Notes: a model not told the origin generated them from the letters alone. Positions 21,227 to 45,940 are shown, numbered from the stretch's first letter. The stretch: 64,000 nucleotides of DNA from Candidatus Doudnabacteria bacterium (GCA_020850635.1 JADZEH010000032.1:11421-75420); one strand, 5' to 3'. A program made the numbers and translations.

Positions 21227-21294
21227 TAGATTATAGATTGGTAAAGCAAACCACTCCGCACTATGTGCGGAGTGGTTTGACTCATGCAGAGCTT

Positions 21295-21678
21295 ATGGAT
21301 AAAAAGAAATATGTAATTGATGGAAATAATTTCGACACCTTAGAAGGGTTTTATGATGAGGTAAGTAATGTCTTAATCCCCGGTGCTTCTTGGGGAAGAA
21401 ACTTTGATGCATTTAATGACATATTATATGGTGGATTTGGTACCCCAGATGAAGGCTTTATCCTAATATGGAAAAATGTAAAGAGATCAAAGTCTGACTT
21501 GGGAGATACCGCAACCCTTAAATGGTTAGAAGGAAAATTGCATAATATTCATCCTTCAAATATACCGATATGGAAACAAAGAATAGCTATGCATAAATTA
21601 AGGTACGGCGAAACACTCTTTATGATACTAGTAGATATTATCTTAAACCATGAAGATATAGAGCTGAGATTTCAATAA
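21295..21678 (+). CDS. barstar-like immunity protein (barnase-inhibitor family)
   Basis: The tracked ORF begins at 21238, but a perfect hairpin (CCACTCCGCACTATGTGCGGAGTGG, 21251-21277) occupies its first codons, so the ATG at 21295 (MDKKKYVIDG) is the likely start. The block YVIDGNNFDTLEGFYDEVSNVLIPGASWGRNFDAFNDIL...ILIW parallels the barstar core (INGEQI..ISDLHQTL...LPEYYGENLDALWDCL...LVLEW). Confidence 0.6.
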   Translation: MDKKKYVIDGNNFDTLEGFYDEVSNVLIPGASWGRNFDAFNDILYGGFGTPDEGFILIWKNVKRSKSDLGDTATLKWLEGKLHNIHPSNIPIWKQRIAMHKLRYGETLFMILVDIILNHEDIELRFQ

Positions 21679-21681
21679 ATT

Positions 21682-21715
21682 AAAAACAGCTATCGTGATG
21701 TAATAGCTGTTTTTA
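21682..21715. terminator. bidirectional intrinsic terminator / left edge of the recombinase element
   Basis: AAAAACAGCTAT-CGTGATGTA-ATAGCTGTTTTT hairpin with A and T runs on both sides. It lies between the convergent barstar-like and recombinase genes. Confidence 0.55.
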
Positions 21716-23410: not shown

Positions 23411-25119
23411 AATTTTTCAATTACTAATTTCCCATATTCCTTCTTTGGAATTTCTTTGCCGTTAATGGTTTGATCATCTGTATTTAATTGCTTCACTCTA
23501 TTCAGTGCTTCTATTCGGTTGATTACTTGTTCAATCTTGAATTCAATTGGAACTGTTTCATCTTTTGAGACTTCAATCGCAATAGCACCTATCAGTTTGA
23601 TTTTGTCATCGGATTTGCCGTTTTTGCGGTATTCCACCTTGGCGATGTAGTCCAGTAAGAATTGTCGTTTAGAATTAAAATCTCCACATCTAGTAAATTG
23701 AGACTTTAAAGTTTTACAGTATTGTTCAGTACTCGCTTTGATAACTTCCGGTTTTTGAAATAGAGGTAGATATTTTAATAATTCAGCTCGCTTAGTTTGC
23801 AGGTTGCCAACTTCTTCATCATAGATAGAGATTCTCTTAACATATTCTTCTCGTTCCAAATCCCCAAAAGAGTAGAGATCAATTATCCGTTCTTTTTGTT
23901 TGCTAACTGTTTTGATTTTACTCTCCACATCTTTAATCTGTTTATCTAGTTTAGATTGATTCTTTTGATTATTGCCTAAGCTAATATAATTTCGGAGCTC
24001 ATTAGGTTTAAGTAATATACTCGTGACCATTTCAACTACCGTTGAATCTAGTACCCTGGTATCAATCTCAGGGTTATGGTTTATGCCTTTAGTTCTGCAT
24101 CGGTATACCGCTTTTTGATATAGCTTAATTCCAGACTTTCTTTCGACTTTGTAATACCTTCGATAGGCGAAGCATCTCAGTTTGCATTTACCGCAGAACA
24201 CTAGATTAGATAGTAGCTGGGTTCGCTGTGCATTTCTAAAACATTCATAGTTATATTTCATCCTTGCTTGCACTTGGTCAAATAATTTCTTTGGTACAAT
24301 TTGCGGTATTTTTATTCCAACCCATTCCGAGCGGTCTCTGTGGATTTTCTTGCCGCGCTTAGTTCTGCGGATTACATTTCCAACCGCATTCGTATCCGTC
24401 ATGGTATTGAAATACTTTGTGCCTGTATAGGTCTCGTTTTGTAGAATGTATTTTAGATGCCCATCACCAAGTTTGTTTCTTTGCTCTTTGGCTAGACCCT
24501 TCGTTTTTAGCTGTCTCGCTAATTCTTTCAGTCCAATATTTCCTTTTGCATACGTTTCAAAAATATACCTTACTATTTTTGCCTCGTGTTCGTTGATTGC
24601 ATAAGAGGGGGAAGAGTCTGTTGTTCTTGGCGTGTATATATAACCATAAATATGACAACCGTTGCTTAACAGATATCCTTGTTTTAATCTGTGCTGCGAT
24701 CCGCGCCTTGTTCTCTCTAACGTTTTAGCTCGCTCCAATTCTGATACCGCACCTAATACCGTGAGTGTGAATTTGTTTTCTGGGTTATTTACATAATCCT
24801 TCCCATTGATAATGATCTGCTTTTTGTAATGCAGAAATTCGCTGATAATAATATTCTGGTAAGTTACATCTCTGGCAATGCGATCAGCATTCAAAATGTA
24901 GATAGTCTGAAATCCCAGAGTTCTAATATCTCTCCTCAGGTCATTCATAGCTGGTCTATCCAGCAAGCATCCGCTGAATCCATCGTCGATGTATTTTTTT
25001 ACCAAAACATCCCCAGAAGCTCTAATTTGCCTTTTAAGCTCCGATATTTGGCTTTCTATAGTTCGCTCCTTCTGCTGGGCATCGGAGCTTACTCTTGCAT
25101 AAAATACTGCTCTTTTCAT
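23407..25119 (-). CDS. large serine recombinase (paralogue of the downstream gene)
   Basis: 570 aa with N-terminus MKRAVFYARVSSDAQ. It is about 60-65% identical to the 21713-23410 product over the first 150 aa (…IARDVTYQN.II.E.L.YKKQIIINGKDY.NPENKFTLTVLGAVSELERAK…). This is a tandem pair reminiscent of CcrA/CcrB-type two-recombinase elements. Confidence 0.85.
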   Translation of the reverse strand: MKRAVFYARVSSDAQQKERTIESQISELKRQIRASGDVLVKKYIDDGFSGCLLDRPAMNDLRRDIRTLGFQTIYILNADRIARDVTYQNIIISEFLHYKKQIIINGKDYVNNPENKFTLTVLGAVSELERAKTLERTRRGSQHRLKQGYLLSNGCHIYGYIYTPRTTDSSPSYAINEHEAKIVRYIFETYAKGNIGLKELARQLKTKGLAKEQRNKLGDGHLKYILQNETYTGTKYFNTMTDTNAVGNVIRRTKRGKKIHRDRSEWVGIKIPQIVPKKLFDQVQARMKYNYECFRNAQRTQLLSNLVFCGKCKLRCFAYRRYYKVERKSGIKLYQKAVYRCRTKGINHNPEIDTRVLDSTVVEMVTSILLKPNELRNYISLGNNQKNQSKLDKQIKDVESKIKTVSKQKERIIDLYSFGDLEREEYVKRISIYDEEVGNLQTKRAELLKYLPLFQKPEVIKASTEQYCKTLKSQFTRCGDFNSKRQFLLDYIAKVEYRKNGKSDDKIKLIGAIAIEVSKDETVPIEFKIEQVINRIEALNRVKQLNTDDQTINGKEIPKKEYGKLVIEKL

Positions 25120-25388
25120 ACCAACATTGATGACGCAGCTTCTTGATCTAGTCTAGGCCAGCTGTTGGTAACTTTCGACTTTACTTTAACTCCAACCCAA
25201 GCTAGGATGGACTGGATTATGCGCCCTAAATATCGTATAATTGCATTAACAACTTAATGCCTAACCCCTCAGGAATGAGGATATGGCGCTAAAACCTATC
25301 ACAGATACTGAACCCTCCGTTCAGCTACTGTGATAGGTCGTATCTGGAAACAGGTACGGGACCGCAAGGTCCATGCTGGCGGGGGGCT

Positions 25389-25997: not shown

Positions 25998-26560
25998 ATT
26001 GCATCTTCTTCCGTTTCTAGGCCACCAGACTCTAAATAACCTTTAACTGGTTTATCTGAGTATCTATCTTCATCATCTACATAATCAGGGTGAGTTGTAT
26101 CGTACCTATGAACTACCGCATTTGCAGCTCTAGTGAATAAATCAAAGACATTATCAATTTGCTCTTTAACTTCTTCTGTAACCTCTGGATGTTTGGCCTG
26201 TACCTTGAATTCATTAATCACAGTCCTGCGATCAGAAAATTTTGGATCACGACTCTTAAGCCAAAATATGGCAGCCGTCATATTGCCTTTACTCATTTCC
26301 TCAATGAGTTTTGATTGAGCAAGTTCATTAATAACCATAGAACCTTCACGGACTGCTTCTGTCGCAACTCTATCAAACTCAGCATCTTCCTCGCACCAGC
26401 GATAGTATGTAGACCTAGCTATGCCAACTTTCTTCACTGCTACTTGCACCACAGGCATCTTTAAAAGCACTTCTACTAATTGAAGTTTTTGTTCAGCGAT
26501 ACGCTTGGCAATCTTTTCTAGTTCCTTTTTATTCTTTGGAGTTTTGCTGGTCTTTACCAT
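25994..26560 (-). CDS. HTH DNA-binding protein, possibly a phage terminase small-subunit-like regulator
   Basis: 188 aa with the helix-turn-helix segment VGIARSTYYRWCEED and a charged N-terminus. Its context next to a phage-type methyltransferase suggests phage origin. Confidence 0.45.
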   Translation of the reverse strand: MVKTSKTPKNKKELEKIAKRIAEQKLQLVEVLLKMPVVQVAVKKVGIARSTYYRWCEEDAEFDRVATEAVREGSMVINELAQSKLIEEMSKGNMTAAIFWLKSRDPKFSDRRTVINEFKVQAKHPEVTEEVKEQIDNVFDLFTRAANAVVHRYDTTHPDYVDDEDRYSDKPVKGYLESGGLETEEDAI

Positions 26561-27893
26561 AGTCTTTATCGCTACTGATCTTAACCGCTTTAGAACCAGT
26601 TAACTTTTCCCAGCGTTTGATAATCACTTCAGTGTAAGTGGGAACTTTCTCCATTGTGTAGCAACGGCGAGCCATTTTCTCACAGGCTATGAGTGTACTG
26701 CCAGAGCCGCCATATGGTTCGACTACAAGCCCTCCGCGTTCAGTGAGTACTTTGATGTAGGGAATAAGGATTTCCACTGGTTTAGTACCAAAGATAATAC
26801 CTTGACCAGAAGACTTCTCGTCACTGGCTTTGTATTCAATAAAGTCAGTAGGACAAATCTTTTTACCTTTCTCATAGTTCTCCCAGTGCGGTTTTCCTGA
26901 AATGGCAAATAAAGCTGTTTCGTATTCTTCTTGAAGCAAAGCTTCTTCCTCAGCAGTATTAAGATGGGCATCGCCAGAAGTGCCAACCATAGCAATATCA
27001 TGCTTGTTAAAGAATTTATGTTTAGCTGCAAATCCTTGAGTACGATTGGGCAAGTGCCAGACAATCATGTTTTTCACTTTCCAATACTTTTCCATCTCAG
27101 ACCAAATGGTGCGAAGATTTTTCCAGTTCTCATATACGATGATACTGAAATCTTCTTTGGCGAATTTAGCAATGTTGGTCATCCAAAGCTCGGTGAAGTT
27201 ATCTGGCAATTCATCTGTTTCCATATACCTACGGTCGCGCTTCAAACCAAAGCCACTCTTGTCCTGACCTTTCTTTTTACCTTTCAGGTAATCCAAGATG
27301 TATGGCGGATCTGTTAAACACAAATCTGCTTTCTCGTTGTTCATCAAGCGGAGAAAATCTTTTTCAATGGTAGAGTCGCCGCACATCAGGCGGTGTTTGC
27401 CTAATTGATAAATATCTCCCTTTTGAACTTTCACTTCAGTGATATCCAACTTCTTGAGCTCTTTTTCCAGATCAAAGACTTCTGGATTTTCCTCAACAGC
27501 AAAGATCTCATCAAGTTCCTCGCTGATAAAGCCGATATCGCTCAGTAGCGATTCGTCAAAAGCAGAGAGGAGTTCCAAATCAAACTCACCACGGTTTTTA
27601 TTTAAGCGCAGGTTAAGTTCTTTTTCTTTTGTTTCATCAGGAATATTCAGATACACCACTGGTGCTTCTGTTTTCCCAAGTTCTTTTAATGCCGCAATGC
27701 GCATGTGTCCGCCGATGAGAATGTTCTTGCGGGTTTCTGCACTGTTCACGAGCAGTGCTTCTACTGTACCGAAGCGCTTAATGCTTTCCTTAAGCTGACT
27801 AAGTGCTTCTTTTGACCACTTGCGTGGGTTGTAGGTGGCAGTAATGAGCTCCTCAATTGGCACATACTGCACCTGAAGTTTTTCGTTTTTCAT
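26529..27893 (-). CDS. ParB-like nuclease domain fused to an N6-adenine/N4-cytosine DNA methyltransferase
   Basis: 454 aa. The N-terminal ParB/Srx-like segment is IEELITATYNPRKWSKEALSQLKESIKRFGTVEALLVN. The MTase motif IV is DPPY (LCLTDPPYILDY), and the C-terminal SAM-binding region is EPYGGSGST. This architecture is common in phage and plasmid orphan methyltransferases. Confidence 0.8.
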   Translation of the reverse strand: MKNEKLQVQYVPIEELITATYNPRKWSKEALSQLKESIKRFGTVEALLVNSAETRKNILIGGHMRIAALKELGKTEAPVVYLNIPDETKEKELNLRLNKNRGEFDLELLSAFDESLLSDIGFISEELDEIFAVEENPEVFDLEKELKKLDITEVKVQKGDIYQLGKHRLMCGDSTIEKDFLRLMNNEKADLCLTDPPYILDYLKGKKKGQDKSGFGLKRDRRYMETDELPDNFTELWMTNIAKFAKEDFSIIVYENWKNLRTIWSEMEKYWKVKNMIVWHLPNRTQGFAAKHKFFNKHDIAMVGTSGDAHLNTAEEEALLQEEYETALFAISGKPHWENYEKGKKICPTDFIEYKASDEKSSGQGIIFGTKPVEILIPYIKVLTERGGLVVEPYGGSGSTLIACEKMARRCYTMEKVPTYTEVIIKRWEKLTGSKAVKISSDKDYGKDQQNSKE

Positions 27894-32763: not shown

Positions 32764-33585
32764 TTGAACTATATGCAAGCTAGGTACTATAATTCTAGTA
32801 TTGGTAGATTTATCAGCCAGGATCCAGCTTACTTGAATCTAAATAGATTAGATGTGCAGTTAAGTGATCCACAAAGTTGGAATAGTTATGCTTATGCCAG
32901 GAACAACCCACTTGCATTAGCTGATCCAACAGGGGAATTCTGGGATACTTTTATAGATGGTATATCTCTTGGGTACAGTCTGCATCAGACTTTATACAAT
33001 GGAACCAAAGCTTTGGGTGGATATGCTTCCATCGGTGCTGGGAAGGTGTTTAACAATCAGTATGCCATAAATGCTGGTAGAGCAGATGTAGCTCGGTATG
33101 GGGCAAAGACAGCCAATAGTGCTCAGGGTTTAGCGATTGATGCAGTTGGTACTGCAGTTCCTTTTGTTCCTGCTGCTGGTATTAAAGCGGCGGCTAAGGC
33201 TGATGCAGTTATAGATATAGCAAAATCTGTCAAACAGGCTGGGGTTGCTGAGGTGTCTCCACTTCTTCGTTCAGGGGATTCTTTTACACAGGCAGGAGAG
33301 CATGTGCTTAGAGATCACCCAAATCGATATCCTGGCATGTCAGCTGAGGATGTAGCAAACTTGGCAAGACAAACTCAGAAGACCGCGAATACAAAGGGAA
33401 CCATCAGAGGTATTGACCCAAGAACTGGACAACCAGTGAATAAAAATTATTATGGGAGTAAGTCTACTGGTCAAATGTTCATAAAAACTAACTTAGGGAA
33501 TTCAACTATTTTTCCTAAGCAAAATATTGGTAGTTATATATATAGACACATATCGAAAGATATTGGTAAATTTGGAAGGAGATAG
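32764..33585 (+). CDS. orphan RHS C-terminal toxin module (RHS core tail plus alternative toxin tip)
   Basis: The tracked start is TTG, but homology to the main RHS core begins at an in-frame stop near 32713. The conceptual translation there is YAGSELDADTGLNYMQARYYNSSIGRFISQDPAYL...SYAYARNNPLALADPTGE, against YTGHEYDVDTGLSYMEARYYNPNIGRFLSQDPVFL...SYSYARNNPLAYIDENGE in the main gene. A toxin domain of about 200 aa follows, Ala/Gly-rich and unlike the main tip. Confidence 0.7.
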   Translation: MNYMQARYYNSSIGRFISQDPAYLNLNRLDVQLSDPQSWNSYAYARNNPLALADPTGEFWDTFIDGISLGYSLHQTLYNGTKALGGYASIGAGKVFNNQYAINAGRADVARYGAKTANSAQGLAIDAVGTAVPFVPAAGIKAAAKADAVIDIAKSVKQAGVAEVSPLLRSGDSFTQAGEHVLRDHPNRYPGMSAEDVANLARQTQKTANTKGTIRGIDPRTGQPVNKNYYGSKSTGQMFIKTNLGNSTIFPKQNIGSYIYRHISKDIGKFGRR

Positions 33586-33586
33586 T

Positions 33587-33916
33587 ATGATTAAGTTTGA
33601 TCAATATACTTGGTTAGTTATAATTGAAGCTATCGATTCATGTTCAGAAGCTGATCCTGAGTTAATTGAAAAAGAAACTGGTTTTCAGTTACAACAATTT
33701 GAAGACTTTAAAGAAAAATACGTAAATTCTATTCAAAAGAGCATGAATCAAGATGATTTACCAATAGTAGTAGCAGCTTTAGAATGGATGTTGGTGACCA
33801 AGAATGATTCGGACATATTACAGATTCATAAGGAAGATGGATTACGTCTTCTTGAATTACTAAGTCAGAAAAGGGGTGAAATAAGAGAAGCGGCATGGTC
33901 ATTGCATTCTGTATAG
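33587..33916 (+). CDS. putative immunity protein for the orphan RHS toxin
   Basis: An ATG sits 1 nt after the orphan toxin stop, preceded by GGAAGGAG. It encodes about 109 acidic residues. The track gives a longer 33527 start that overlaps the toxin. Confidence 0.5.
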   Translation: MIKFDQYTWLVIIEAIDSCSEADPELIEKETGFQLQQFEDFKEKYVNSIQKSMNQDDLPIVVAALEWMLVTKNDSDILQIHKEDGLRLLELLSQKRGEIREAAWSLHSV

Positions 33917-34057
33917 TGATTGGATATAGTTAACCATAAAACAGGCCGTATGGCCTGTTTTAGTTTGCATCAAATAATAAAAGCCGCCGTGTCTATTTCT
34001 CCCGAGGGAAAATTAGAACACGGCGTTGTTCTGCTTGGTTCCCGAACAGTAGCGGGG

Positions 34058-34855
34058 TCATCGCTGTTTCAGTCCCTGTGTGAGACGGAAAACAGACAGT
34101 ATGCGGATGACGTACCAGTTGACGTCAAATTCGAACCACTTCCTCCCATGCTTGGCCGAAGTCGGCTGGTGATGATGGTTGTTGTGCCATCCTTCTCCGT
34201 GCGTGATCAGTGCAACCCACCAGTTGTTGCGGGAGTCGTCGTGGGTAGGGTATCGACGATAGCCCCAGCGGTGTGCTGCCGAGTTGACCAACCACGTCGA
34301 GTGCCAACAGCAGACCGTAGGTACACATATGCCCCAGCATATCGCTTGCCATCCACCGATGCTCCAGAGCATCATTGTAAGGAGCGCTGTCGGCGTCATC
34401 CAGTAGTGGTTGAGCAGGCGATAGAATGTACTTTTGAAAAGGTCGGGGGAGTACTTTTGCATCAGTGCGTGACTGTGCATAATGGCCGGTGGCTTTATGA
34501 TCCACCCTACGTGAGCCCACAGGACACCGTCCCGTGGTGTATGAGGGTCCTTGCCTGGCTTTTCTGTGGTGTTGTGATGTCTGCGGTGTGAGGTCACCCA
34601 CTTAAGCGGAGGACCTTGTAGTGCAAGGCATCCGCATAGGGCTAGGGTGTATTCAAACCACCTTGGTGTTTTGAAACCTCGGTGGGTGAGGAGTCGGTGA
34701 TAGCCTATCCCGATACCAAGACATGATATGGAAAACCACACGGTGCCCGCGATGATCAGCAGGCGAAGTTCGAAAGAGAAAAGAGCGATCACTGCTCCAA
34801 CGTGGAACAGGAGAAGAAAGAACGCGGTGAAGTAATTCACCTTGTATTTCATCAC
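34058..34855 (-). CDS. acyl-CoA/acyl-lipid delta-9-type fatty-acid desaturase (membrane di-iron)
   Basis: 265 aa. It has three His boxes, HRLLTH, HRRHH and HNNHHH, with the expected spacing and 4 TM helices. GC is about 58%, far above the flanks, and there is a strong SD (AAAGGAGG). Confidence 0.8.
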   Translation of the reverse strand: MMKYKVNYFTAFFLLLFHVGAVIALFSFELRLLIIAGTVWFSISCLGIGIGYHRLLTHRGFKTPRWFEYTLALCGCLALQGPPLKWVTSHRRHHNTTEKPGKDPHTPRDGVLWAHVGWIIKPPAIMHSHALMQKYSPDLFKSTFYRLLNHYWMTPTALLTMMLWSIGGWQAICWGICVPTVCCWHSTWLVNSAAHRWGYRRYPTHDDSRNNWWVALITHGEGWHNNHHHQPTSAKHGRKWFEFDVNWYVIRILSVFRLTQGLKQR

Positions 34856-34923
34856 AGAAGGCCTCCTTTGACCTTGGGGACTAAGTATACCAGTGAATTG
34901 GTTATTTAGTAATGGTTGGCCTT

Positions 34924-35601
34924 TTAGTCGTCTCTATGGCGTATTTTTCCAGTGATCTTGGCAGGAATTTGGCCTTTGGGGTCAATCCATAGCAGGAAAC
35001 GCATCACAAACTCTTTAGCCTTGTGAATTGTGACGTGAGCTGATGATGAGTATTCTTCCAAAAATCTTTTGTAGTGTTTGTTTCTTTCGATGAGATAGTC
35101 TTCGGCGGGGAAGGCTTTTGCGGAAATGCCTTCGTTCTCAAAAAGTCTTCTCGCTCGTTCGAGTTGGTAGCCAATGGCCATCAGTGCTACTTTTCCAGTA
35201 ATATTTTTGTCTTCTAACATCTTGGCGATGTTCTCAGCGTTCTGCACAGTGTCTGTAGCTTGCTCTTCCAAGATGAGGGAGTCATCCAGAGTAAACTTAC
35301 CGGCTTCTTCAGGATATTTTTGTAAAAGATATTCCATCATCTCATGAGACTCTGATGGTTTGTTAGCCCCAGCAGTTTTACCTCCTGTGATGATAATTTT
35401 GTCGGCCATATCTGCTTTAATCATTTCACCAATGGCCAAAGTCACCATTTTTGATTCCATACTTAATTTCAAAGGCTCGTCACCTTCATGTTTGGAGAGA
35501 TAGTCTTTCCAACCCTTGGCTAAAACTATCAGGGCGTCAAAATGTTCTGGGACTTCATGTTCTTCACGATTTGGGTCGCGTTCAAATGATCGTTCGTTCA
35601 T
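34924..35601 (-). CDS. DUF218 (YdcF/SanA/ElyC-like) domain protein
   Basis: 225 aa with the blocks IIITGGK...SESHEMMEYL...TDTVQNAENI, typical of DUF218. Confidence 0.65.
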   Translation of the reverse strand: MNERSFERDPNREEHEVPEHFDALIVLAKGWKDYLSKHEGDEPLKLSMESKMVTLAIGEMIKADMADKIIITGGKTAGANKPSESHEMMEYLLQKYPEEAGKFTLDDSLILEEQATDTVQNAENIAKMLEDKNITGKVALMAIGYQLERARRLFENEGISAKAFPAEDYLIERNKHYKRFLEEYSSSAHVTIHKAKEFVMRFLLWIDPKGQIPAKITGKIRHRDD

Positions 35602-35999
35602 GCGGTTGTGTGGTAAAAATCATCTTTAGCTTCCTCGGGTTCGTTTAAACTATTGTAATCAATGGTGATTTCTTCGCCTGCTTTGATATCTCGTGCCGCA
35701 TACCATTTATAATCCTCGTCATTGATAGCGTTAGCATTACTTGAGTGATTAAGATACCAACCCACTGGCATAGCAGAGAAGTCTTTAGGACAAATAAGTT
35801 TGTTGCCACGATTCATACAGTAGTCTTGGAATATCGTTGGAACATCATTAGAGTTTCTTTCTAAAGACCTTAGTTCCATGGTGTCTTCTGGTCCAAATAG
35901 GGCAAGGTGAGTATCTTTGGAAATATCGTGTGTTGCAAAAACCCCTACACCATGTTGAGCGGGTTTTAAAAGAAAAGAAAATTCGTTGGTTGTATTCAT
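35598..35999 (-). CDS. SET-domain protein (putative protein lysine methyltransferase)
   Basis: 133 aa. It has the SET core motifs NHSSNANA (the NHSxxPN class) and EEITIDY (ELxxDY class). Its stop is coupled to the downstream DUF218 start. Confidence 0.65.
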   Translation of the reverse strand: MNTTNEFSFLLKPAQHGVGVFATHDISKDTHLALFGPEDTMELRSLERNSNDVPTIFQDYCMNRGNKLICPKDFSAMPVGWYLNHSSNANAINDEDYKWYAARDIKAGEEITIDYNSLNEPEEAKDDFYHTTA

Positions 36000-36055
36000 G
36001 CTGTTATAGTATCAAATTATAGGGGTCTTGAAAAAGAAAAATGCCCCGATTTGTA

Positions 36056-36781
36056 TCAGGGCGGAGTCGTCGTAGTGGCCAGTTCTTTCAGGGCTTTCTC
36101 TCGGTAAGCCTTAGCACCTTCTCGAAGATTATCGTAGTGATACTCGATCGGGTGGGTGATGATGTAAACAAGCCCTTGTTCGCCGTACTGTTTGATGATC
36201 GGGGCAACAATCCACCTACCTCCCATGTACGAATAATGGATATTGTCCCAGGCCAGATCTTCGGGCCCACTTGGTAGCCAGTTGAAGCCATATTGGTCAT
36301 CGTCCTTGTAGGGTGGCTGTCCTTTGTACTCAAAATAGGTTCCGACTCCTTCCGACCTGATCTTTACTGAGACTTTCTCTTTGATGGTCATGTATATGAC
36401 ACACTCGTAGTCGGGCCATGGTCGGTTAGCAGATCTTCTGCTAACTTGGTCCATCAGGGCGTGTCCAAGCTCATGATCGAGTAACGATATCTCTTTTCCA
36501 TATCGATGCATTGGAGCAAAGAGAAATGATTGAGTTTCTGGTAAGTAACACCCATCCCAATCACTTCTTTCAGACATGCTCAGGTCGTCTGGAAATCCGA
36601 ATGACACTCGTGGTTTCCAGTTGTCATCGAATTCGATGCAGTGAAGTTCTTCGATGACGGCCATCCGTTCTATCATCAAAGACTCCATGGCGTCCTCAGC
36701 TGATGCACGCTGTGTGGTTTGGCCAAGGCCCAGAGTAGACACACACAGGGCCAAGAACAGTGCGAAGAGTAGCTTGGGCAT
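36056..36781 (-). CDS. secreted HExxH zinc metallopeptidase-like protein
   Basis: 241 aa with a signal peptide (MPKLLFALFLALCVSTLGLG) and an HELGHALMD zinc-binding motif. GC is elevated at about 50%, with a GGAGGA SD. Confidence 0.6.
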   Translation of the reverse strand: MPKLLFALFLALCVSTLGLGQTTQRASAEDAMESLMIERMAVIEELHCIEFDDNWKPRVSFGFPDDLSMSERSDWDGCYLPETQSFLFAPMHRYGKEISLLDHELGHALMDQVSRRSANRPWPDYECVIYMTIKEKVSVKIRSEGVGTYFEYKGQPPYKDDDQYGFNWLPSGPEDLAWDNIHYSYMGGRWIVAPIIKQYGEQGLVYIITHPIEYHYDNLREGAKAYREKALKELATTTTPP

Positions 36782-36847
36782 GATTTCCTCCTGCCGTCGA
36801 GATTGGGGTTATCATAACAAAAAATCGCCTTGGGGGCGATTGTACTG

Positions 36848-36876
36848 TTGACTTTTATTCAGAAATATGGTACTAT
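36848..36876 (+). promoter_or_regulatory. sigma70-type promoter with an extended -10 for the small zinc-ribbon ORF
   Basis: TTGACT at 36848-36853, a 17-nt spacer, then TGgTACTAT with the -10 at 36871-36876. GGTGGAGG lies 5 nt before the ATG at 36905. Confidence 0.45.
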
Positions 36877-36904
36877 GAGCAAATCCTGACGGTGGAGGAA
36901 AGTC

Positions 36905-37072
36905 ATGCCACGAATTCATTCGGCGAATTGCCGCTTTTGCGGTTATCCGAACGACGTGACAGGGATGGCACGTGGTTACAAGTTCAGATGTGACTACTGC
37001 AATGGAAAAACACCAGTGCCGAAGTACGTCAGCGTCATGAAAGTCTCAAAGAAGTACAAGAAGAAAAAGTGA
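36905..37072 (+). CDS. small zinc-ribbon protein (55 aa), absent from the ORF track because it is under 60 aa
   Basis: MPRIHSANCRFCGYPNDVTGMARGYKFRCDYCNGKTPVPKYVSVMKVSKKYKKKK. It has two CxxC pairs (CRFC...CDYC), a basic tail, and a clear promoter and SD. Confidence 0.45.
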   Translation: MPRIHSANCRFCGYPNDVTGMARGYKFRCDYCNGKTPVPKYVSVMKVSKKYKKKK

Positions 37073-37174
37073 CGTTAGCTTCGGCCGTTAGTCATCGAAT
37101 CAGAGGGGGACATAGTTTCGAATCAACGAAGGATGGTATACAGACTCGCGGCGCCAAACGGTTCCGCGGTCTTT

Positions 37175-37480
37175 TTATATATTAAGTCCTAAAGCTAGAA
37201 CAATCAAAGCAAAAACTATTAGCCAACCAATCGTGTAAATAAAGAGCTTGATAGCTTCTACCTTTTGTCCCTCAACGTACATTAATATTGGCTTACCCAG
37301 GACTAGTCCGCTGGTGATAGAAGCAGAAATAACAAAGACTAACAAAAATGCAATGGGGGCAAACATGTTATTTATCGTACCAAAGATTTTTTCGCCATTT
37401 AGCATAAGAGTTACTAGTGTTGCTACGTAAGCTCCAGTGCCTAAAGCATTTAAGAAACTGCGTTTGATAAGTTTTTTCAT
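37175..37480 (-). CDS. small membrane protein (3 TM)
   Basis: 101 aa and hydrophobic. It is preceded on the minus strand by an extended -10, TGTTATAAT. Confidence 0.45.
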   Translation of the reverse strand: MKKLIKRSFLNALGTGAYVATLVTLMLNGEKIFGTINNMFAPIAFLLVFVISASITSGLVLGKPILMYVEGQKVEAIKLFIYTIGWLIVFALIVLALGLNI

Positions 37481-37518
37481 ATGGTTAAATTAATTATAGT
37501 AGTATTATAACAAAAATT

Positions 37519-37923
37519 TTATTCTGCTAGCAGATCGTGGGGGAAATAGTTTGCGACTGGACGTTCGTTTAAAGTACCAAATCCGCAACCACCAGCTACA
37601 GGATCTGTAAGCACAACGCCGTTATTAACGGCAGTGACGGGTTCGTCAGTATGCCAGTGCTTTTCTGGACAGCCGGGGCCATCAGCGTGCTTAGGGTGAG
37701 GTTCACCAATGCGTAATTTATTGATCAACAAGTAATTGCCTTCATAGTCGATAATTTCAACAGCTTTACCGTCGCTAAAATCAACCCCGTGTTGGACCAT
37801 GCTTTTTACGGCTGGGGTTGGTTGTTCTGTCGATTCAACTCCCTTTTTGGAATTTGAAAAATAGATTATGCCAAGGATGATAATTACAACCAAGGGCATA
37901 AAAATCAATAGCATTTTTCTCAT
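37519..37923 (-). CDS. secreted/anchored hypothetical protein, possibly metal-binding
   Basis: 134 aa with an N-terminal TM/signal and a His/Cys-containing segment HPKHADGPGCPEKHWHTDEP. It is adjacent to the copper operon. Confidence 0.45.
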   Translation of the reverse strand: MRKMLLIFMPLVVIIILGIIYFSNSKKGVESTEQPTPAVKSMVQHGVDFSDGKAVEIIDYEGNYLLINKLRIGEPHPKHADGPGCPEKHWHTDEPVTAVNNGVVLTDPVAGGCGFGTLNERPVANYFPHDLLAE

Positions 37924-38098
37924 AGTTGTTTTTTAATGTCGTAGATTAATTGGTTTGATTATAACAAAAACGAGCCTAGTTTACGAGATTTTTTATTGAG
38001 CCGCTCCTTAAGCTGGGGAATGGAGGATTTGGGAATAGAAACCAGAAATAATCCAAAAGGACTTGACAGATACCCCCAGGGGGGTATAGACTTGAAAT

Positions 38099-38365
38099 AT
38101 GATAAATCCCAACAAAGAAAAGCTTGTACGCAGGCTCAAAATTATTGAAGGTCAAATTCGAGGTCTTCAAGACTTGGTAAACAAAGATACTTATTGTATC
38201 GACGTTATCACTCAAACTTCTGCAGTTAAACAAGCCTTAACTAACGTCGAGGATATTTTAATGGAAAGTCATTTAAGTACTTGTGCTATTGATCAGGTTA
38301 AAAGTGGTCAAGAGAAAAAAGCTATTGCTGAAATTTTGAAAGTCTACCGCGTAAAACGAAAGTAA
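38099..38365 (+). CDS. csoR: CsoR/RcnR-family metal-sensing transcriptional repressor
   Basis: 88 aa with the DUF156 pattern RLKIIEGQIRGLQ..V......C.DVI.Q..AV..AL......L...HL..C. It lies directly upstream of copA. Confidence 0.75.
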   Translation: MINPNKEKLVRRLKIIEGQIRGLQDLVNKDTYCIDVITQTSAVKQALTNVEDILMESHLSTCAIDQVKSGQEKKAIAEILKVYRVKRK

Positions 38366-38392
38366 TTTATCTAATTTTAAATAGTTAAAATT

Positions 38393-40714
38393 ATGGAAAA
38401 TTCACAAACGTATCGAGTTAAAGGAATGCACTGCGCATCTTGTGCTGGTATTATTGAGAAAACACTGAAGAAAACAGCAGGAGTAGATTCGGTGGAAGTT
38501 AATTATGGTACTGAAACTTGCAAGATTGCATTTGATGAAAATAAAATCAATCCCCAAGACCTTTCTCAGAAAATTGAAAAGTTTGGATACTCTTTGGCTA
38601 CGCCAGCAGAGCAGGGGATGAACCATGAGATGACCGCAGAACAAATGGGTCATAGCCCATCAGAGCATGCCGAGCATTTAGGTTTGAATCAATCAAAAGA
38701 AGAAAAGCTTGCTGAGCTCAAAGATTTAAAGTATAAAATTATTTCTGTAATCCCATTAGCGGTTTTTAGTATCGTGTTAATGAGTTGGGATATTTTAGTG
38801 CAGTTTGGGTATGTCGGAGAAATGTCTTACACGATGAAAGAGTTTTTCCATCATCTCTTGCCAATTTTCGCGACTTATACTTTGTTTGTGGTAGGCAAAC
38901 CTTACTTACTTGGTTTTTATCGATTTCTTCGATACGGAGTTGCTAATATGGAAAGTTTGATTGGGATTGGGACTACGGCCGCATTTGTCTACAGTTTCGC
39001 TGTCACTGCTTTTGAAGAAGTCCTAGCTCCTTACCTTAACGTTGAACACACATACTATGATGTCACGATTGTTGTCATCGCTTTTATTACTCTAGGTAAA
39101 TACCTTGAAGTTCGTTCCAAGATGAAAACTGGTGATGCAATTGAGCAATTACTTAATCTTCAAGCAAAAACCGCGTTAGTAATTCGTGATGGAAAAGAGA
39201 TCGAAATTCCAGCTGACCAGGTTGTGATCGGAGATTTAGTTGTTGTTAAGCCGGCTGGGAAGTTACCAGTAGACGGTATCATTACAGACGGATCGTCCTT
39301 TGTAGATGAGGCCATGGTAAGCGGAGAACCCATTCCAGTGGAGAAACAGGTTGGTGACAAGGTTGTAGCCGGGACGGTTAATACTAGCGGTACGTTTACT
39401 TTTAAAGCTACTGGTGTTGGTTCTGAAACTTTACTTGCCCATATTGTCAAAATGGTTCAGGAAGCCCAAGGCAGCAGGGCACCAATTCAGGCTTTGGCAG
39501 ATAAAATTTCTGCGGTGTTTGTGCCGATAGTGATTGTCTTGGCATTTGTTTCACTAGGGCTATGGTTAGTGATTGGTACTCAGTATCTTGGCTTTTCCCA
39601 AGCCTTATCGTATGGTTTAGTTTCCTTTGTTGGGATTCTAGTTATTGCTTGTCCTTGTGCTTTGGGTTTGGCTACGCCAACGGCAATTATTGTCGGTGTT
39701 GGCAAAGGTGCTAAAGAAGGCATCTTAATTAAAGATGCAGGTACACTACAAAAGTTACATAAAGTAAATACTGTGGTGGTTGATAAAACAGGCACTATAA
39801 CAAAAGGAAAACCAGAATTAGGAGCTATTAAGAATTACTCTGCTGAAAGCGATAATGATCTGATTGCAATTCTAGCAACTTTGGAAAATAAATCTGAACA
39901 TCCAATTGCTCACGCAGTAGTCCAATACGCTAAAGCACATTCTGTGGAACTATTAAAACTAGATAAATTTGAAGCGATTAAAGGTAAGGGTTTGCGAGGA
40001 GTGGTAGCTGGAGAAGAATATTTTGCTGGTAGTTTGAAGTTAATTTCTGATTTAGGTTTAGAATTTAATTCTGCCGAAATTGAATCGGAAACACTTACTG
40101 GTAAAACTCCTGTGGTTTTGGCGACTAAGACTGGTGTGGTGGGTGTGGTGTTCGTGGCAGATCCAATTAAGCCAGAAGCAGTGGCCGCGGTTGCAAAGCT
40201 TCATCAGCTTGGTATAGATGTTGTTATGCTTACCGGTGACAACAAAAATACAGCAGAATTTATTGCAAAACAGGTTGGTATTGATCAAGTCCAAGCAGAG
40301 GTGTCGCCTGAAGATAAATTGAACAAGATAAAAGCACTGCAAGCTGAAGGTAAAATAGTCGCAATGGCAGGGGATGGTGTGAATGACGCACCGGCACTCG
40401 CGCAAGCCGATGTTGGTATCGCTATGGCAACTGGTACAGACGTTGCTATTGAAAGTGCTGGAATCACCTTGCTTCATGGTGATATCAGTAAACTAGTAAA
40501 AGCAATTCGCTTGTCTAAATTAACCATGCGTGGGATTAAGCAGAATTTGTTTTGGGCGTTTTTCTACAATGTTGTTGGTATACCGCTAGCAGGTGGGGCT
40601 TTCTTCCCATTGTTTGGGTGGTTATTAAATCCAATTTTTGCTGGACTGACTATGGCCTTTTCTAGTGTTTCGGTGGTCGCCAACTCACTGCGATTAAAAG
40701 TTAAGAAATTATAA
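38393..40714 (+). CDS. copA: copper-translocating P1B-type ATPase
   Basis: 773 aa. It has an N-terminal HMA domain (GMHCASCAG), a CPC transmembrane metal site ([11 protein letters not shown]), the phosphorylation motif DKTGTITKG, and hinge motifs [10 protein letters not shown] and MLTGDN. Confidence 0.9.
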
Positions 40715-40718
40715 ATCC

Positions 40719-41741
40719 ATGAATAAAACCTACACCTTTCATGTTAAGGGGATGCACTGTAAAGCTTGCGTGTTAATGATTGATAGTGAGTTAGAAGATT
40801 TGCCGAATGTAGAGAGTGTTAGCGCAAGCCTCCAAAAACATCAGGTTGAAGTGAGTGGTGATTTTGGTGAAAAAACCCCTGAGCAAATTGCAGAGGAGTT
40901 AAGTCTTCCACTCGCAAATCGTGGTTATAATCTCACCGTTGAAAAGCATGCCACGAAAAAGAATTGGTCAGAATTTATTTATGCGGTGCCAATTGCTGCA
41001 GTCTTCGCTCTGTTGTTCGTGTTGTTGCAAAAATCTGGAGTTGTAAATTTAGTAGATGCTAGTGAAATGTCTTACGGCACTGCGTTTTTAATTGGCGTGA
41101 TCGCTTCGGTTTCTACTTGTATGGCAGTGGTTGGTGGGCTAATTCTTTCCATGTCCGCCAGTTATGCAAAAACAGGTGACACGATGAAACCTCAAATTTT
41201 ATTTCACATTGGCCGAATCGTATCTTTTTTTAGTCTTGGTGGAATTATTGGGGCGATAGGTTCAGCTTTTGCATTGAATCAAGCAAGCACCTTTGTTCTA
41301 GGCTTAGTAATCGGTCTTGTGATGTTAGTGCTCGGTCTTAATTTGTTAGAAGTATTTCATTTTACCAAGAAACTTCAACCAGCTATGCCCAAGTTTATCT
41401 CTAGGCATGTTATGGGAATTTCGAAGTTTAATCATCGCTTTACGCCAATCGTGGTAGGTGTCGCGACCTTCTTCTTACCCTGTGGATTTACTCAATCCAT
41501 GCAGATTTATACTTTATCAACTGGTAACTTTTTAAGTGGTGGTTTGACGATGCTAGCTTTTGCTTTAGGAACCTTGCCGGTATTGGCATTGATCAGTTTT
41601 AGCTCTTTCAGCATCAAAAATAGTTCGAAGTCAGGAATATTCTTCAAAACTGCAGGTTTGATAGTTATATTATTTGCGTTATTTAATCTCATCAGCAGTT
41701 TTGTCGCAATTGGCTGGATACAACCTGTATTTAATTTTTAA
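40719..41741 (+). CDS. HMA-domain protein fused to a polytopic membrane domain (DsbD/CcdA- or TauE-like)
   Basis: 340 aa. The N-terminal HMA domain has GMHCKACV, and a 6-TM hydrophobic domain follows. Confidence 0.6.
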   Translation: MNKTYTFHVKGMHCKACVLMIDSELEDLPNVESVSASLQKHQVEVSGDFGEKTPEQIAEELSLPLANRGYNLTVEKHATKKNWSEFIYAVPIAAVFALLFVLLQKSGVVNLVDASEMSYGTAFLIGVIASVSTCMAVVGGLILSMSASYAKTGDTMKPQILFHIGRIVSFFSLGGIIGAIGSAFALNQASTFVLGLVIGLVMLVLGLNLLEVFHFTKKLQPAMPKFISRHVMGISKFNHRFTPIVVGVATFFLPCGFTQSMQIYTLSTGNFLSGGLTMLAFALGTLPVLALISFSSFSIKNSSKSGIFFKTAGLIVILFALFNLISSFVAIGWIQPVFNF

Positions 41742-43535: not shown

Positions 43536-44276
43536 ATGAATACCATAGAATCTATAGAAAATTTAATAAATGAAAAGGGTTTTAAAGTTGACAGGAAGGA
43601 TTTAGAAAATATATGGAACAAGGTTTGGAAAGGTATCGAGCCTGATAATTATTCAAGTTTACGTTTATATAAAACTTTGGATAAAGTAAGAAATATTGAA
43701 AATTTAGGAGTGGATTTTACAAATAAAAATATTTTAGATATTGGTTGTGGTGATGGGACTTTGATTAAATACCTAAGTAGTAAATATCAGGCTCAGTGTG
43801 TTGGAATTGATATTTCTAAAGATGTGATAAATCAAAATAAAGAAAAAAGTCTTATTAACGTACAATTTTCTATTGGCGACCATAGAGATCTTAGAGATTT
43901 TGAGTCAGAAACATTTGATCTAGTAATTAGTTTAGGTGTGGTTGAACATTTTCAAGAATACGGCTTAGCTTTGTCTGAAGCTAGGAGGGTATTAAAAACT
44001 GGGGGGAAGCTTATTTTAATACAACCTCATCTATTATCGTTTGGTGTTATCCAAGAGTTTTTGTTAAGATTAACTCAAAAATGGAAGTTTGGTAAACAGT
44101 ATGATTTTAGTTATTTCTATTATCGAAAACTATTAAAAATTTTAGGTTTTAGATTTATTCAAACGCAAACACAACCACCCTATTTTGATATGAGGGTGGT
44201 AAGAACGTTAGATATTCTTATAAAAAGATTCATCGTTAGTTGGGGACACTATCTATATATAATTGCTCAAAAATAA
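43536..44276 (+). CDS. class I SAM-dependent methyltransferase
   Basis: 246 aa. Motif I is ILDIGCGDGTL, with an acidic residue at the end of beta-2 (GIDIS) and motif IV LVISLGVVEH. It is very AT-rich. Confidence 0.7.
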   Translation: MNTIESIENLINEKGFKVDRKDLENIWNKVWKGIEPDNYSSLRLYKTLDKVRNIENLGVDFTNKNILDIGCGDGTLIKYLSSKYQAQCVGIDISKDVINQNKEKSLINVQFSIGDHRDLRDFESETFDLVISLGVVEHFQEYGLALSEARRVLKTGGKLILIQPHLLSFGVIQEFLLRLTQKWKFGKQYDFSYFYYRKLLKILGFRFIQTQTQPPYFDMRVVRTLDILIKRFIVSWGHYLYIIAQK

Positions 44277-44613
44277 TATGGAAATTTCAAAAGCCCAAGA
44301 AAATTTAAAATCTTTATTATCAAGGGTCGCTTACCCTAGAATCGGCACAATTATTGGATTACAAGAAGAGGTCGGAAAGCTTTCTAAGGTTATCATGGAT
44401 ATCGAAATTTATAATAGGGAATTAAATAAAGCAGAGTTGGACAAGAGATGTGCTAATGTCTTTGTTGCTGTTATGGATATGTGTAATTCTTATGATATAG
44501 ATTTGGAGTTAGTTATAGAAAAACGTATAGAAGAAGTTAATTCTAAAATAAAAATGTGGGAAAGTCAGTACGGTGAAGAGTTAAGAAACAAAAGAGAAAG
44601 ATTCGATGAATAG
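44263..44613 (+). CDS. MazG-like nucleoside triphosphate pyrophosphohydrolase (small all-alpha NTP-PPase)
   Basis: 116 aa. It has the EExxE/K motif in helix 1-2 (GLQEEVGKLSKVIMDIE) and a second acidic cluster (DMCNSYDIDLE). The start overlaps the upstream stop. Confidence 0.55.
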   Translation: MLKNNMEISKAQENLKSLLSRVAYPRIGTIIGLQEEVGKLSKVIMDIEIYNRELNKAELDKRCANVFVAVMDMCNSYDIDLELVIEKRIEEVNSKIKMWESQYGEELRNKRERFDE

Positions 44614-45328
44614 ACAAAACCAGAAAATATATAAGAACTCTTTCAGCCTTTTTTTAAAAAGTACTAACGAAAAGAAGGTAATTTTGGATTTTGTTAAAAA
44701 AAATATATCATTGGGAAAAGTTAAGAATGTATTAGATATTGGTGGTGGAAATGGTGCCTTGGCTTTACCGCTAGCCCGTTTAAAAAAAAATGTTACCGTA
44801 GTGGAACCCAATAAACAACTAGCTGGTAAATTAAATTCACGACGAATTAAGTATGTAAACAAAACATGGGAGAACTATAAATCATCTAAAAAATTTGATC
44901 TTGTTGTGGCTGCATACGTAGTCACTTATTTTAAAAAGAAAGATTTGCCTAAGTTAATAGATAAGATGTATGAGTTAGTTTTACCGGGAGGATGCTTGAT
45001 TATTTTTACTATTGATCCTAAAAGGGGTTCGTGGCGAGGAATACACACCTATTTTTACCAGTTGTTAGGGATTGAGCATAAATCTTCTACGTATTTACTC
45101 AAATCATATCTTTCTAAATATAAGCATGTATGTTCAAGATCAATAAAAACTCTAGTAAAGACTAAAAATATTTCTGAAATGCTCAAGATTTTAGCGTTTG
45201 ATTTTTATCAATATGAACCAAATTTTACTAAATATAAAATTGAACTTGAGAAGTACTTAAAGAAACATCTTGTAGGCAAGGGTGTGGTACTAAAAATGGT
45301 ACACGAGGTATTTATTATCAAAAAATAA
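44606..45328 (+). CDS. class I SAM-dependent methyltransferase (second)
   Basis: 240 aa. Motif I is VLDIGGGNGALALPLA and the post-I acidic residue is VVEPN. The start overlaps the upstream stop. Confidence 0.65.
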   Translation: MNRQNQKIYKNSFSLFLKSTNEKKVILDFVKKNISLGKVKNVLDIGGGNGALALPLARLKKNVTVVEPNKQLAGKLNSRRIKYVNKTWENYKSSKKFDLVVAAYVVTYFKKKDLPKLIDKMYELVLPGGCLIIFTIDPKRGSWRGIHTYFYQLLGIEHKSSTYLLKSYLSKYKHVCSRSIKTLVKTKNISEMLKILAFDFYQYEPNFTKYKIELEKYLKKHLVGKGVVLKMVHEVFIIKK

Positions 45329-45331
45329 TAT

Positions 45332-45940
45332 ATGAATAAAAATATTGAATTAGAGTTTCGTGCGAATTTGACAAAAAAACTAGCAGAGAGAGTAGATCGC
45401 CAACTGACCGCCCTAGCAAAGAGAAAAGAAGTTACAAAAAGGATTTCATTTATGTCCTTTGGTTCTCAGGGTTCAAATAATATTGACATTAGAGTGCGTT
45501 TAACAAATGGAAAATCAGAGGTCGTTATAAAGACGGGTGAATTACATTCTCATAAACGAATCGAGCTTTCACAAACCATTGGGACTGAACAATTTATGGG
45601 ATTTGTTAAACTATTTACATTATTCAATTATGAAACTAAAATAGCTGAACGGGTAACAACTAATTATTATTTGAAAAATAATATCGTAGTATCTATTGTA
45701 CAAGCTAAAAGCATTTTTTATCTAGAAATAGAAAAATTAAGTCATATAAGTGAAATTGAAAAAAACACAAAAATTTTAAAAGATATTTTGAAGAAGCTTG
45801 GCTTGAGTGATCATATAATTAATACCAAGGCAGCGTTTGATCAACTCTGCTCTTTACTATCGAAGAAAACCGATTGGACGTATAAGGGGTCCATGAGAGA
45901 TGAAAAAAGATTAAAAATGTTAATTAAGAGGTTTATTTAG
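45332..45940 (+). CDS. CYTH-like (CyaB/thiamine-triphosphatase fold) triphosphate tunnel metalloenzyme, putative
   Basis: 202 aa. The N-terminus has the ExExK/R motif (IELEFRANL), and the C-terminus has the acidic ExE cluster (FYLEIEKL). These are the two signature motifs of CYTH domains. Confidence 0.45.
   Translation: MNKNIELEFRANLTKKLAERVDRQLTALAKRKEVTKRISFMSFGSQGSNNIDIRVRLTNGKSEVVIKTGELHSHKRIELSQTIGTEQFMGFVKLFTLFNYETKIAERVTTNYYLKNNIVVSIVQAKSIFYLEIEKLSHISEIEKNTKILKDILKKLGLSDHIINTKAAFDQLCSLLSKKTDWTYKGSMRDEKRLKMLIKRFI

Follow-up and report, generated by a model that had tools for sequence, protein, structure and literature searches.

A probable recombination-prone accessory islet with GC-rich, Shine-Dalgarno-led genes beside an Rhs toxin locus in Candidatus Doudnabacteria

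The stretch of DNA analysed here, called the window in the following, comprises 64,000 nucleotides (nt) of a Candidatus Doudnabacteria genome (GCA_020850635.1, JADZEH010000032.1:11421-75420). Five adjacent genes, encoding a delta-9-type desaturase, a DUF218 protein, a SET-domain protein, a peptidase and a zinc-ribbon protein, probably form a flexible accessory islet that is prone to recombination. Three of these genes are GC-rich and are led by a Shine-Dalgarno (SD) sequence. With moderate confidence, these units are regarded as xenologous or as circulating in a pool, acquired before the sampled strains split and later exchanged as alleles. New is the presence of deep, saturated alleles inside near-identical flanks, together with a mapped breakpoint. 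The desaturase and the peptidase, which contains an HExxH motif, match NCBI proteins of one Candidatus Doudnabacteria metagenome-assembled genome, encoded on a contig of 77,330 bp, at 100%, and therefore the host is a bacterium of the Candidate Phyla Radiation (CPR, Patescibacteria). Candidatus Doudnabacteria has been described as a tiny symbiotic soil bacterium. Exact-sequence look-ups of the desaturase (with both possible starts), a neighbouring 134-amino-acid (aa) protein and a 101-aa transmembrane protein (TM101) returned no record. Related sequences were found on contigs of six other samples, namely L001, L002 and L006 from ENA and L007, L003 and L004 from Logan. All five genes are located where the original prediction had placed them, and only the beginning of its span, 33990, falls into the 3' flank of the desaturase gene. 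The features of the islet are:

34058-34855, minus strand: desaturase, SCD1/DesC-like delta-9 type (PF00487, 76.6 bits, cut-off 29.7)
34216-34755, minus strand: hyperdivergent core of the desaturase gene (identity profile against L004)
34862-34866, minus strand: GGAGG SD of the desaturase gene, leader identical in the relative
34924-35601, minus strand: DUF218 protein, SanA/ElyC-like and envelope-associated (PF02698, 49.0 bits, cut-off 27.6)
35598-35999, minus strand: SET-domain protein (PF00856, 45.2 bits, cut-off 22.4)
36016-36793, minus strand: peptidase allele block (identity profiles)
36056-36781, minus strand: peptidase gene, 241 aa, HELGH motif, signal-like hydrophobic N-terminus, no Pfam family
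36787-36791, minus strand: GGAGG SD of the peptidase gene, 30-nt leader the same in L004 and L006
36794-36853, no strand assigned: conserved divergent-promoter region that contains the recombination breakpoint (three-way comparison)
36848-36898, plus strand: zinc-ribbon promoter TTGACT-17 nt-TACTAT (sigma-70-like) and leader, GGAGG at 36894-36898
36854-37151, plus strand: zinc-ribbon allele block (identity profiles)
36905-37072, plus strand: zinc-ribbon open reading frame (ORF), 55 aa, two CxxC pairs, Lys-rich tail

Identity was followed with sliding profiles, substitutions were counted according to Nei-Gojobori, and the breakpoint was mapped by a three-way comparison of the window, L004 and L006. 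Between L006 and the window, the nucleotide identity amounts to 93-100% on the far side of the zinc-ribbon gene (37178-37717) and to 88-98% on the SET side. The zinc-ribbon and peptidase block of L006/L007 in between has an identity of only 42-72%, without any indel in the peptidase coding sequence. The peptidases of the window and of L006/L007 share 53% of their amino acids, yet they have an identical 30-nt leader. The relationship to L004 follows another pattern, because its peptidase gene is 80-98% identical to that of the window, versus about 50-60% for the zinc-ribbon gene. Throughout the zinc-ribbon block, L004 and L006 are 87-100% identical to one another and both only about 50-60% identical to the window. 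At the place of the SET gene L004 carries an unrelated 131-aa gene. The identity between the desaturase genes of L004 and the window is 84-100% at the ends, with 98-100% for the 3' end, compared to 53-72% in the core; the core proteins (residues 26-214) have an identity of 61%, and the best sequence from outside reaches 54%.

The synonymous sites of the divergent blocks (peptidase, zinc ribbon, desaturase core) are saturated, with a proportion of synonymous differences (pS) of 0.79-0.86 and a nonsynonymous rate (dN) of 0.30-0.52, against a background with synonymous rates (dS) of 0.09-0.55 and a dN/dS of about 0.1. For the desaturase core the values are pS = 0.86 and dN = 0.30, compared to a dS of 0.06 and 0.17 at the two ends. 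The breakpoint lies between 36794 and 36853: in the three-way comparison, the informative sites to its left join L004 and L006 (116:0:0), and those to its right join L004 and the window (32:248:28; Fisher p = 6e-71). The deep versions are positional alleles that are shuffled by homologous recombination, not the result of a local acceleration of the substitution rate. In-situ rate acceleration or positive selection alone was rejected, because dS is saturated besides dN and because the gene ends are 98-100% identical. A diversity-generating retroelement was also rejected, in view of whole-gene divergence over 0.3-0.8 kb, saturated synonymous sites and recombination-like edges; a reverse transcriptase was not searched for.

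Well-known mosaic loci are the pneumococcal pbp genes, O-antigen and capsule loci, and the loci of Rhs tip displacement. The islet resembles them in its near-identical flanks, the saturated blocks, the breakpoints in conserved segments, the replacement of a cassette and the adjacency to an Rhs locus. It differs from them in that single small, GC-rich and SD-led genes are swapped in a largely SD-less genome, and that its borders have neither flanking direct or inverted repeats nor a tRNA or an integrase. Compared to a classical genomic island, the islet has the deviating composition, but neither the absence from relatives nor the mobility borders.

L003 and L004 contain the same cluster in the order zinc ribbon, peptidase, 131-aa gene, DUF218 and desaturase. 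The GC contents at third codon positions (GC3) are 0.65 for the zinc ribbon, 0.50 for the peptidase and 0.60 for the desaturase, the same pattern as in the window, and the SD leaders are letter-identical. At the same time, the dS between the window and L003/L004 is 0.55 for DUF218 and 0.44 for the peptidase gene, and the DUF218 protein has an identity of 92% to that of L004. The common cluster, composition and leaders indicate that the acquisitions predate that split. Cluster and composition are likewise present in L006/L007, and thus the genes are not absent from close relatives.

The composition was evaluated against 57 genes of the window, which has an overall GC content of 40.0%. These background genes have a GC content of 0.384 +/- 0.042 and a GC3 of 0.336 +/- 0.056. 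Three islet genes deviate strongly, i.e., the desaturase gene (GC 0.532, GC3 0.623, z = 5.2), the peptidase gene (GC 0.490, GC3 0.533, z = 3.5) and the zinc-ribbon ORF (GC 0.464, GC3 0.589, z = 4.6), and a GGAGG is located 6-9 nt 5' of each of them. The elevated GC of the three genes, the peptidase value of about 50% and the near-background values of DUF218 (GC 0.423, GC3 0.425) and SET (GC 0.391, GC3 0.328) had all been predicted correctly; for the desaturase gene the predicted 58% GC was too high, and 53% was measured. Two further GC-rich islands of the window served as comparators:

11382-13211, plus strand: gene for a B12-binding radical-SAM protein, GC 0.55, GC3 0.65, GGAGG SD (counted with the start at GTG 11382)
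51065-51334 and 51401-51868, plus strand: two ORFs, GC3 0.61 and 0.67, the second with an AAGGAGG SD

For the second of these islands, predicted at 50996-51870, the high GC was verified and the real genes were found to be the two plus-strand ORFs. The minus-strand ORFs 51143-51844 and 11331-12551 were rejected as shadow frames of GC-rich plus-strand genes. In a survey of about 68 ORFs, all five GC-elevated genes (including the radical-SAM gene and the ORF at 51401) have a GGAGG, compared to two of the 63 others (Fisher p = 2e-6), the genes for GreA (42469) and Gmk (42944), in agreement with the prediction that such SDs are rare elsewhere. The combination of high GC3 and an SD leader flags accessory genes here, without identifying a high-GC donor, and two of the three islands belong to families that are resident in CPR. 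The window also contains an AT-rich island (43536-45940) of four successive plus-strand genes with 29-31% GC (GC3 0.21-0.29), far under the background.

The desaturase comprises 264-265 aa, depending on whether translation starts at ATG 34852 or GTG 34855. The three predicted His boxes were found (HRLLTH at residue 52, HRRHH at 89 and HNNHH at 223), and in an alignment with mouse SCD1 (4ymk; E = 2.4e-27) every His box and the NSAAH motif are matched. It thus has the complete ligand set for a di-iron center of an O2-dependent, delta-9-type membrane desaturase. With NCBIfam NF049918 the score is only 94.9 bits (cut-off 400), and the protein is therefore no DesA equivalog. Of the two hairpins (four transmembrane helices) expected for this type, a simple hydropathy scan detected the N-terminal one alone (residues 4-51); the other can be aligned with SCD1 but remains below the threshold. 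Like the delta-9 desaturases SCD1 (PDB 4YMK) and DesC, the protein belongs to PF00487 and has the HxxxxH / HxxHH / HxxHH pattern and the NSAAH motif, and the DesC-type proteins of Acidobacteriota (about 280 aa) match it in length and architecture. Unlike these systems, it is encoded in a CPR genome, has a short form of 264 aa and lacks a fused cytochrome b5.

The best 80 matches to the desaturase among GTDB species representatives are almost all from Acidobacteriota, with identities of 48-53%, and include Pyrinomonadaceae, Acidobacteriaceae, Bryobacteraceae and Blastocatellia. The named matches in a search of 5.8 billion proteins agree with this affinity. The Acidobacteriota desaturase genes have GC contents of 0.51-0.62 and a mean GC3 of 0.72 (range 0.53-0.86), and therefore the composition of the desaturase gene of the window fits such an origin. 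Judged from the sequence comparisons, a non-CPR ancestry would fit the desaturase, but a recent transfer does not, and it is the only one of the compared genes for which a high-GC donor phylum is plausible. Two further contigs, L102 and L103 (Logan ERR11593882 and ERR11523672), encode a 264-aa desaturase of equal length that is 54% identical to that of the window. They have 47% GC, small genes (Nramp, ABC exporter, RluB-like), a TATACT -10 box and an AAGGAGG SD, and may represent a wider group of small-genome bacteria with this type of desaturase. A phage origin of the islet genes was rejected, as viral contigs yielded no peptidase gene and a single distant desaturase (32% identity).

The peptidase has its HELGH motif at residues 103-107, and in an alignment of 60 sequences H103, E104, H107, E144 and G145 are invariant. 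The AlphaFold model that was built with this alignment has a pLDDT of 91.8 (39.6 with an alignment of five sequences). It places E144 into a helix (133-151) downstream of the HExxH helix (98-118), and E144 would thus be the third zinc ligand; the protein agrees with a thermolysin-like catalytic fold. The N-terminus consists of MPK, a hydrophobic core of 15 residues (Kyte-Doolittle value 2.45) and polar residues, as read without a dedicated signal-peptide predictor. The description that fits the peptidase best is that of a small, putatively Sec-exported protein of an uncurated family, similar to the MA(E) gluzincins. It matches no Pfam or NCBIfam family, and only three of 60 relatives have weak matches to DUF4344 or M1. 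A Foldseek search of the model against the PDB gave no significant match, and phmmer against the PDB found nothing. The closest known systems are the MA(E) gluzincins, i.e., thermolysin (M4) and the catalytic domain of M1/LTA4H, and the Chloroflexus protein 3CMN. Unlike these, the peptidase has only about 240 aa, is reduced to the catalytic core and is 10-15% identical to solved structures.

A word-indexed search retrieved five relatives of the peptidase, and an exhaustive profile search retrieved 325 cluster representatives. The nearest relative outside Doudnabacteria is from Candidatus Yanofskybacteria (38% identity), and its gene is also elevated in GC (0.451 versus 0.407). The closest family members have low GARP/FYMINK ratios, as in low-GC genomes, and one distant member is encoded on a soil contig with 60% GC. 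Homologs of the radical-SAM protein with identities of 50-60% were found in Microgenomates, Parcubacteria, Berkelbacteria, Uhrbacteria and the 'Patescibacteria group'. As the nearest relatives of both proteins are from other CPR/Patescibacteria, the donors of these genes, if they were transferred, were probably CPR lineages and not high-GC phyla. A scan of JGI metagenomes with the peptidase alignment yielded only short contigs, and the same scan with DUF218 yielded nothing. A 60%-identical peptidase allele is present in another genome context (L005/L094, ENA ERZ1749613), with an APH kinase gene upstream and a gene for a transmembrane protein downstream. It has a GC content of 0.478, compared to 0.28-0.39 of its neighbors, and a GGAGG SD, and thus the composition is kept across genomes; its leader is related to the two leaders of the window that are compared below.

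The zinc-ribbon ORF is a real gene with a sigma-70-like promoter, and the 44%-identical allele of the relatives has kept both CxxC pairs (C9xxC12 and C29xxC32). Its matches to Pfam and NCBIfam fall under the respective cut-offs. The leaders of the divergent peptidase (36782-36806) and zinc-ribbon (36880-36904) genes are alike, CCAATCTCGACGGCAGGAGGAAATC versus CAAATCCTGACGGTGGAGGAAAGTC. Their likeness might possibly reflect a shared regulatory element; a comparison with Rfam gave zero matches to structured RNAs or riboswitches even at E <= 1.

From these results the following history is proposed. The islet would consist of two host-like genes (DUF218 and SET) and three foreign transcription units, located at the edge of an Rhs toxin locus, and each foreign unit would be equipped with a separate promoter and, in a leader of about 25 nt, with a GGAGG SD. 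The desaturase would be a xenolog from outside CPR with kinship to an almost wholly acidobacterial clade, the peptidase family would circulate mainly among CPR-like low-GC genomes, and the third foreign unit would encode the tiny zinc-ribbon protein. The acquisition would have preceded the divergence of the sampled strains. Afterwards, homologous recombination would have exchanged entire alleles, or only the cores of genes, among deeply diverged versions, with conserved leaders, gene termini and the intergenic promoter as crossover sites. The identities of the genes, their catalytic motifs, the composition, the synteny in the relatives, the mosaicism and the breakpoint are observations; the transfer direction, the donor, the enzymatic activities and the selective cause are our interpretation. 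The desaturase is predicted to introduce a cis double bond into scavenged acyl chains with O2 and a reduced electron carrier. A CPR cell auxotrophic for fatty acids would have to scavenge acyl chains, and in oxic or cold soil the desaturase might adjust the fluidity of the cell membrane. The peptidase would act extracellularly, on proteins of the host or of the environment, and the depth of its alleles would agree with diversifying selection at the interface to the host.

Several points weigh against this history. The families of the peptidase and the radical-SAM protein are CPR-resident, and the GC excess might not stem from transfer. The high GC3 of saturated alleles within a genome with 34% GC3 calls for separate imports or for some force that keeps GC high. 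In a rough neighbor-joining tree the Doudnabacteria desaturase pair is sister to the Acidobacteriota clade and not nested within it, and among the 5.8 billion proteins nothing above about 55% identity except the Doudnabacteria alleles, and hence no donor, was found. Patescibacteria are missing from the best 80 GTDB matches to the desaturase, but that scan used exact peptide words, and the absence from other Patescibacteria is thus not proven. An electron donor for the desaturase was not identified in the window. Furthermore, only three or four haplotypes could be compared, on short metagenomic contigs.

The alternative that survives best, although we regard it as unlikely, is that the GC-rich genes, at least those for the peptidase, the zinc ribbon and the radical-SAM protein, are native and that their GC3 was raised in place, by GC-biased gene conversion at a hotspot of recombination or by selection on the mRNA or codons of genes that depend on an SD. 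The GC-rich segments are exactly the recombination mosaics, the peptidase gene is GC-elevated in three genomic contexts (window, L005, Yanofskybacteria), the radical-SAM family is CPR-wide, and a high GC3 persists in the saturated alleles, as every allele keeps a value of about 0.50-0.64. For the peptidase and the radical-SAM gene this explanation is the most credible. However, the excess amounts to +0.2 to +0.3 GC3 and has sharp, gene-bounded edges. SET, a replaced cassette, and DUF218, which lies between recombining genes, are at background GC. Moreover, the recently exchanged ends and the old core of the desaturase gene have the same GC3 of 0.60-0.66, and the top matches of the desaturase include no homolog from Patescibacteria beyond this Doudnabacteria.

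The original prediction had proposed repeated uptake from high-GC donors, and several recent, independent and still unameliorated uptakes are the next alternative, which appears even less probable. It would account for GC3 values 3.5-6 standard deviations over the background, for the foreign-style SD leaders and for the closest relatives of the desaturase in GC-rich Acidobacteriota, in the lower part of whose GC3 range (0.53-0.86) the value of 0.62 falls; the deep alleles could also be separate imports. In contrast, the best identity of the desaturase outside Doudnabacteria is only 48-55%, and the nearest kin of the peptidase and the radical-SAM protein are CPR bacteria. A relative at a dS of about 0.5 shares the cluster, its composition and, letter for letter, its leaders, and the island edges have neither mobility genes nor flanking repeats. 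The swaps make use of conserved leaders and termini, and therefore the donors already had this locus architecture. Of the proposal of repeated uptake, the acidobacterial affinity of the desaturase and the repeated exchange of DNA are retained; the recent timing is refuted, at least among the sampled relatives, by L003/L004, as the original prediction had itself named the sharing of genes with equal composition by close relatives as its refutation, and high-GC donors of the peptidase and radical-SAM genes give way to CPR donors.

An artefact of assembly or binning, i.e., the joining of foreign GC-rich fragments to a CPR contig, is extremely improbable: the abrupt composition shifts at gene boundaries and the common end of L001 and L002 at 35014 could be taken as its signs, but every internal junction is reproduced across independent samples and assemblers, and the peptidase gene has a host-type promoter motif. 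The junction peptidase-SET-DUF218 was seen in L001, L002, L006 and L007, and the junction TM101-zinc ribbon-peptidase in L004 and L006. L003 and L004 both contain the junction DUF218-desaturase, where the identity over 34846-34935 is 100%. L001 and L002 are 99.9% identical to the window over 35014-37192, L006 and L007 are 100% identical over 1421 bp, and L003 and L004 99.6% over 1391 bp, with each pair derived from different samples. As contigs of six other samples reproduce the gene junctions, a chimera is excluded, and the assembly check suggested by the original prediction speaks for a genuine locus. L001 and L002 are independent assemblies of one strain, and their exact end at 35014 within the DUF218 gene may mark a branch point caused by strain variation in the assembly graphs. 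The peptidase gene is preceded by a T-run and an extended -10 motif (TTTTTGTTATGATA, minus strand, 36810-36823), like neighboring host genes, and by a hairpin at 36823-36841, all within the region of the breakpoint.

The neighborhood is in agreement with a flexible accessory islet. Upstream, the window encodes an SpvB/FG-GAP/RHS polymorphic toxin of 2312 aa (13973-20911) and a Barstar-like immunity protein (21238-21678). After about 12 kb follow an orphan Rhs core/toxin tip (32764-33585) and a short ORF (33527-33916) that may encode an immunity protein. The Rhs gene of L003 carries an EndoU nuclease tip instead; it is located, together with small genes, directly beside the desaturase gene and matches window 17468-20197 at 92.6%. 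The Rhs locus and its different arrangement in L003 indicate that the islet borders a recombination-prone region. The segment 20911-32731 (about 12 kb) is absent from L003. It encodes two large serine recombinases (21713-23410 and 23407-25119), a fusion of ParB-N and a DNA methylase (26529-27893) and a 1132-aa protein without a Pfam match, and a LOOT RNA (RF03000, 83.6 bits; 25258-25372, plus strand) is located immediately 3' of the recombinase pair. The segment looks like an integrated mobile element or an insertion by Rhs tip displacement. The recombinases at 21713-25119, the nearest to the islet, are part of this separate segment. On the other side the islet is flanked by a block (37519-41741) for copper or metal homeostasis, with genes for the 134-aa His/Cys-rich protein, a CsoR-type repressor (38099-38365), a CopA-like P-type ATPase (38393-40714) and an HMA-DsbD_2 protein (40719-41741). 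PADLOC found no match to a defence system for any gene of the cluster.

Two hairpins accompany the ends of islet genes:

33938-33961, no strand assigned: GC-stem hairpin AAAACAGGCC-GTAT-GGCCTGTTTT with A and T runs around it, 3' of the desaturase gene, read from the sequence
36043-36062, minus strand: hairpin resembling a terminator, where the peptidase gene ends (terminator scan)

The first is probably a bidirectional terminator, although it is not among the hairpins listed by the consensus terminator scan, and the alignment to L003 stops near it, at about 33932. The SET gene overlaps the start of the DUF218 gene by 4 nt and has a -10-like box immediately 5' of its ATG. Many host genes have a hairpin, a T-run and an extended -10-like box (TTTTTTGTTATGCT / TGTTATAAT) a few nt before the start and no SD. 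Examples of the box are found at 36810-36823, 37503-37516 and 37957-37970 and upstream of 48926, 49510, 50341, 50898 and 54283. In 11 of the 57 genes the end of a strict -10 hexamer is 3-14 nt away from the start, on its 5' side, compared to 7.5% of random positions. The proximity of -10-like boxes to the starts and the lack of SDs suggest that the mRNAs of the core genes are leaderless or have very short leaders.

A wider reading, which we offer only tentatively, is that the GC-rich, SD-led genes (desaturase, gluzincin, zinc ribbon, B12 radical-SAM and the ORFs at 51.0-51.9 kb) form a horizontally circulating pool of deep alleles, which are repeatedly swapped, by homologous recombination at conserved leaders and termini, into a largely SD-less and possibly in part leaderless core. 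The DNA might come from the physical host, for which the affinity of the desaturase makes Acidobacteriota a candidate. If this were true, the desaturase would be a tool of a CPR bacterium to remodel stolen host lipids in oxic soil.

According to the prevailing view, CPR/Patescibacteria do not synthesize fatty acids and subsist, for the most part anaerobically, on lipids of their hosts. In the searchable literature, a fatty-acid desaturase of a CPR bacterium was not found to be reported. Such CPR genomes have been described as being without lipid synthesis (PMC8407418), and cyo ubiquinol oxidase operons were laterally acquired by soil Doudnabacteria, Saccharibacteria and Parcubacteria (Nicolas et al., 2021; PMC8407418). 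The desaturase resembles the cyo acquisition in the phylum-level lineage, in being an O2-dependent membrane enzyme and in its non-CPR affinity. It is a different gene, and the allele-swapping population structure is not contained in that paper (PMC8407418). The desaturase adds to the published lateral gain of aerobic functions by soil Doudnabacteria (PMC8407418). As a protein of probable non-CPR ancestry that is conserved in two lineages, it suggests that some soil CPR bacteria remodel scavenged lipids. With its near-identical flanks, saturated alleles and breakpoint, the accessory islet exemplifies how a small CPR genome can accommodate a flexible locus driven by recombination, here adjoining an Rhs toxin locus, and its genes are candidates for functions in the interaction with the host.

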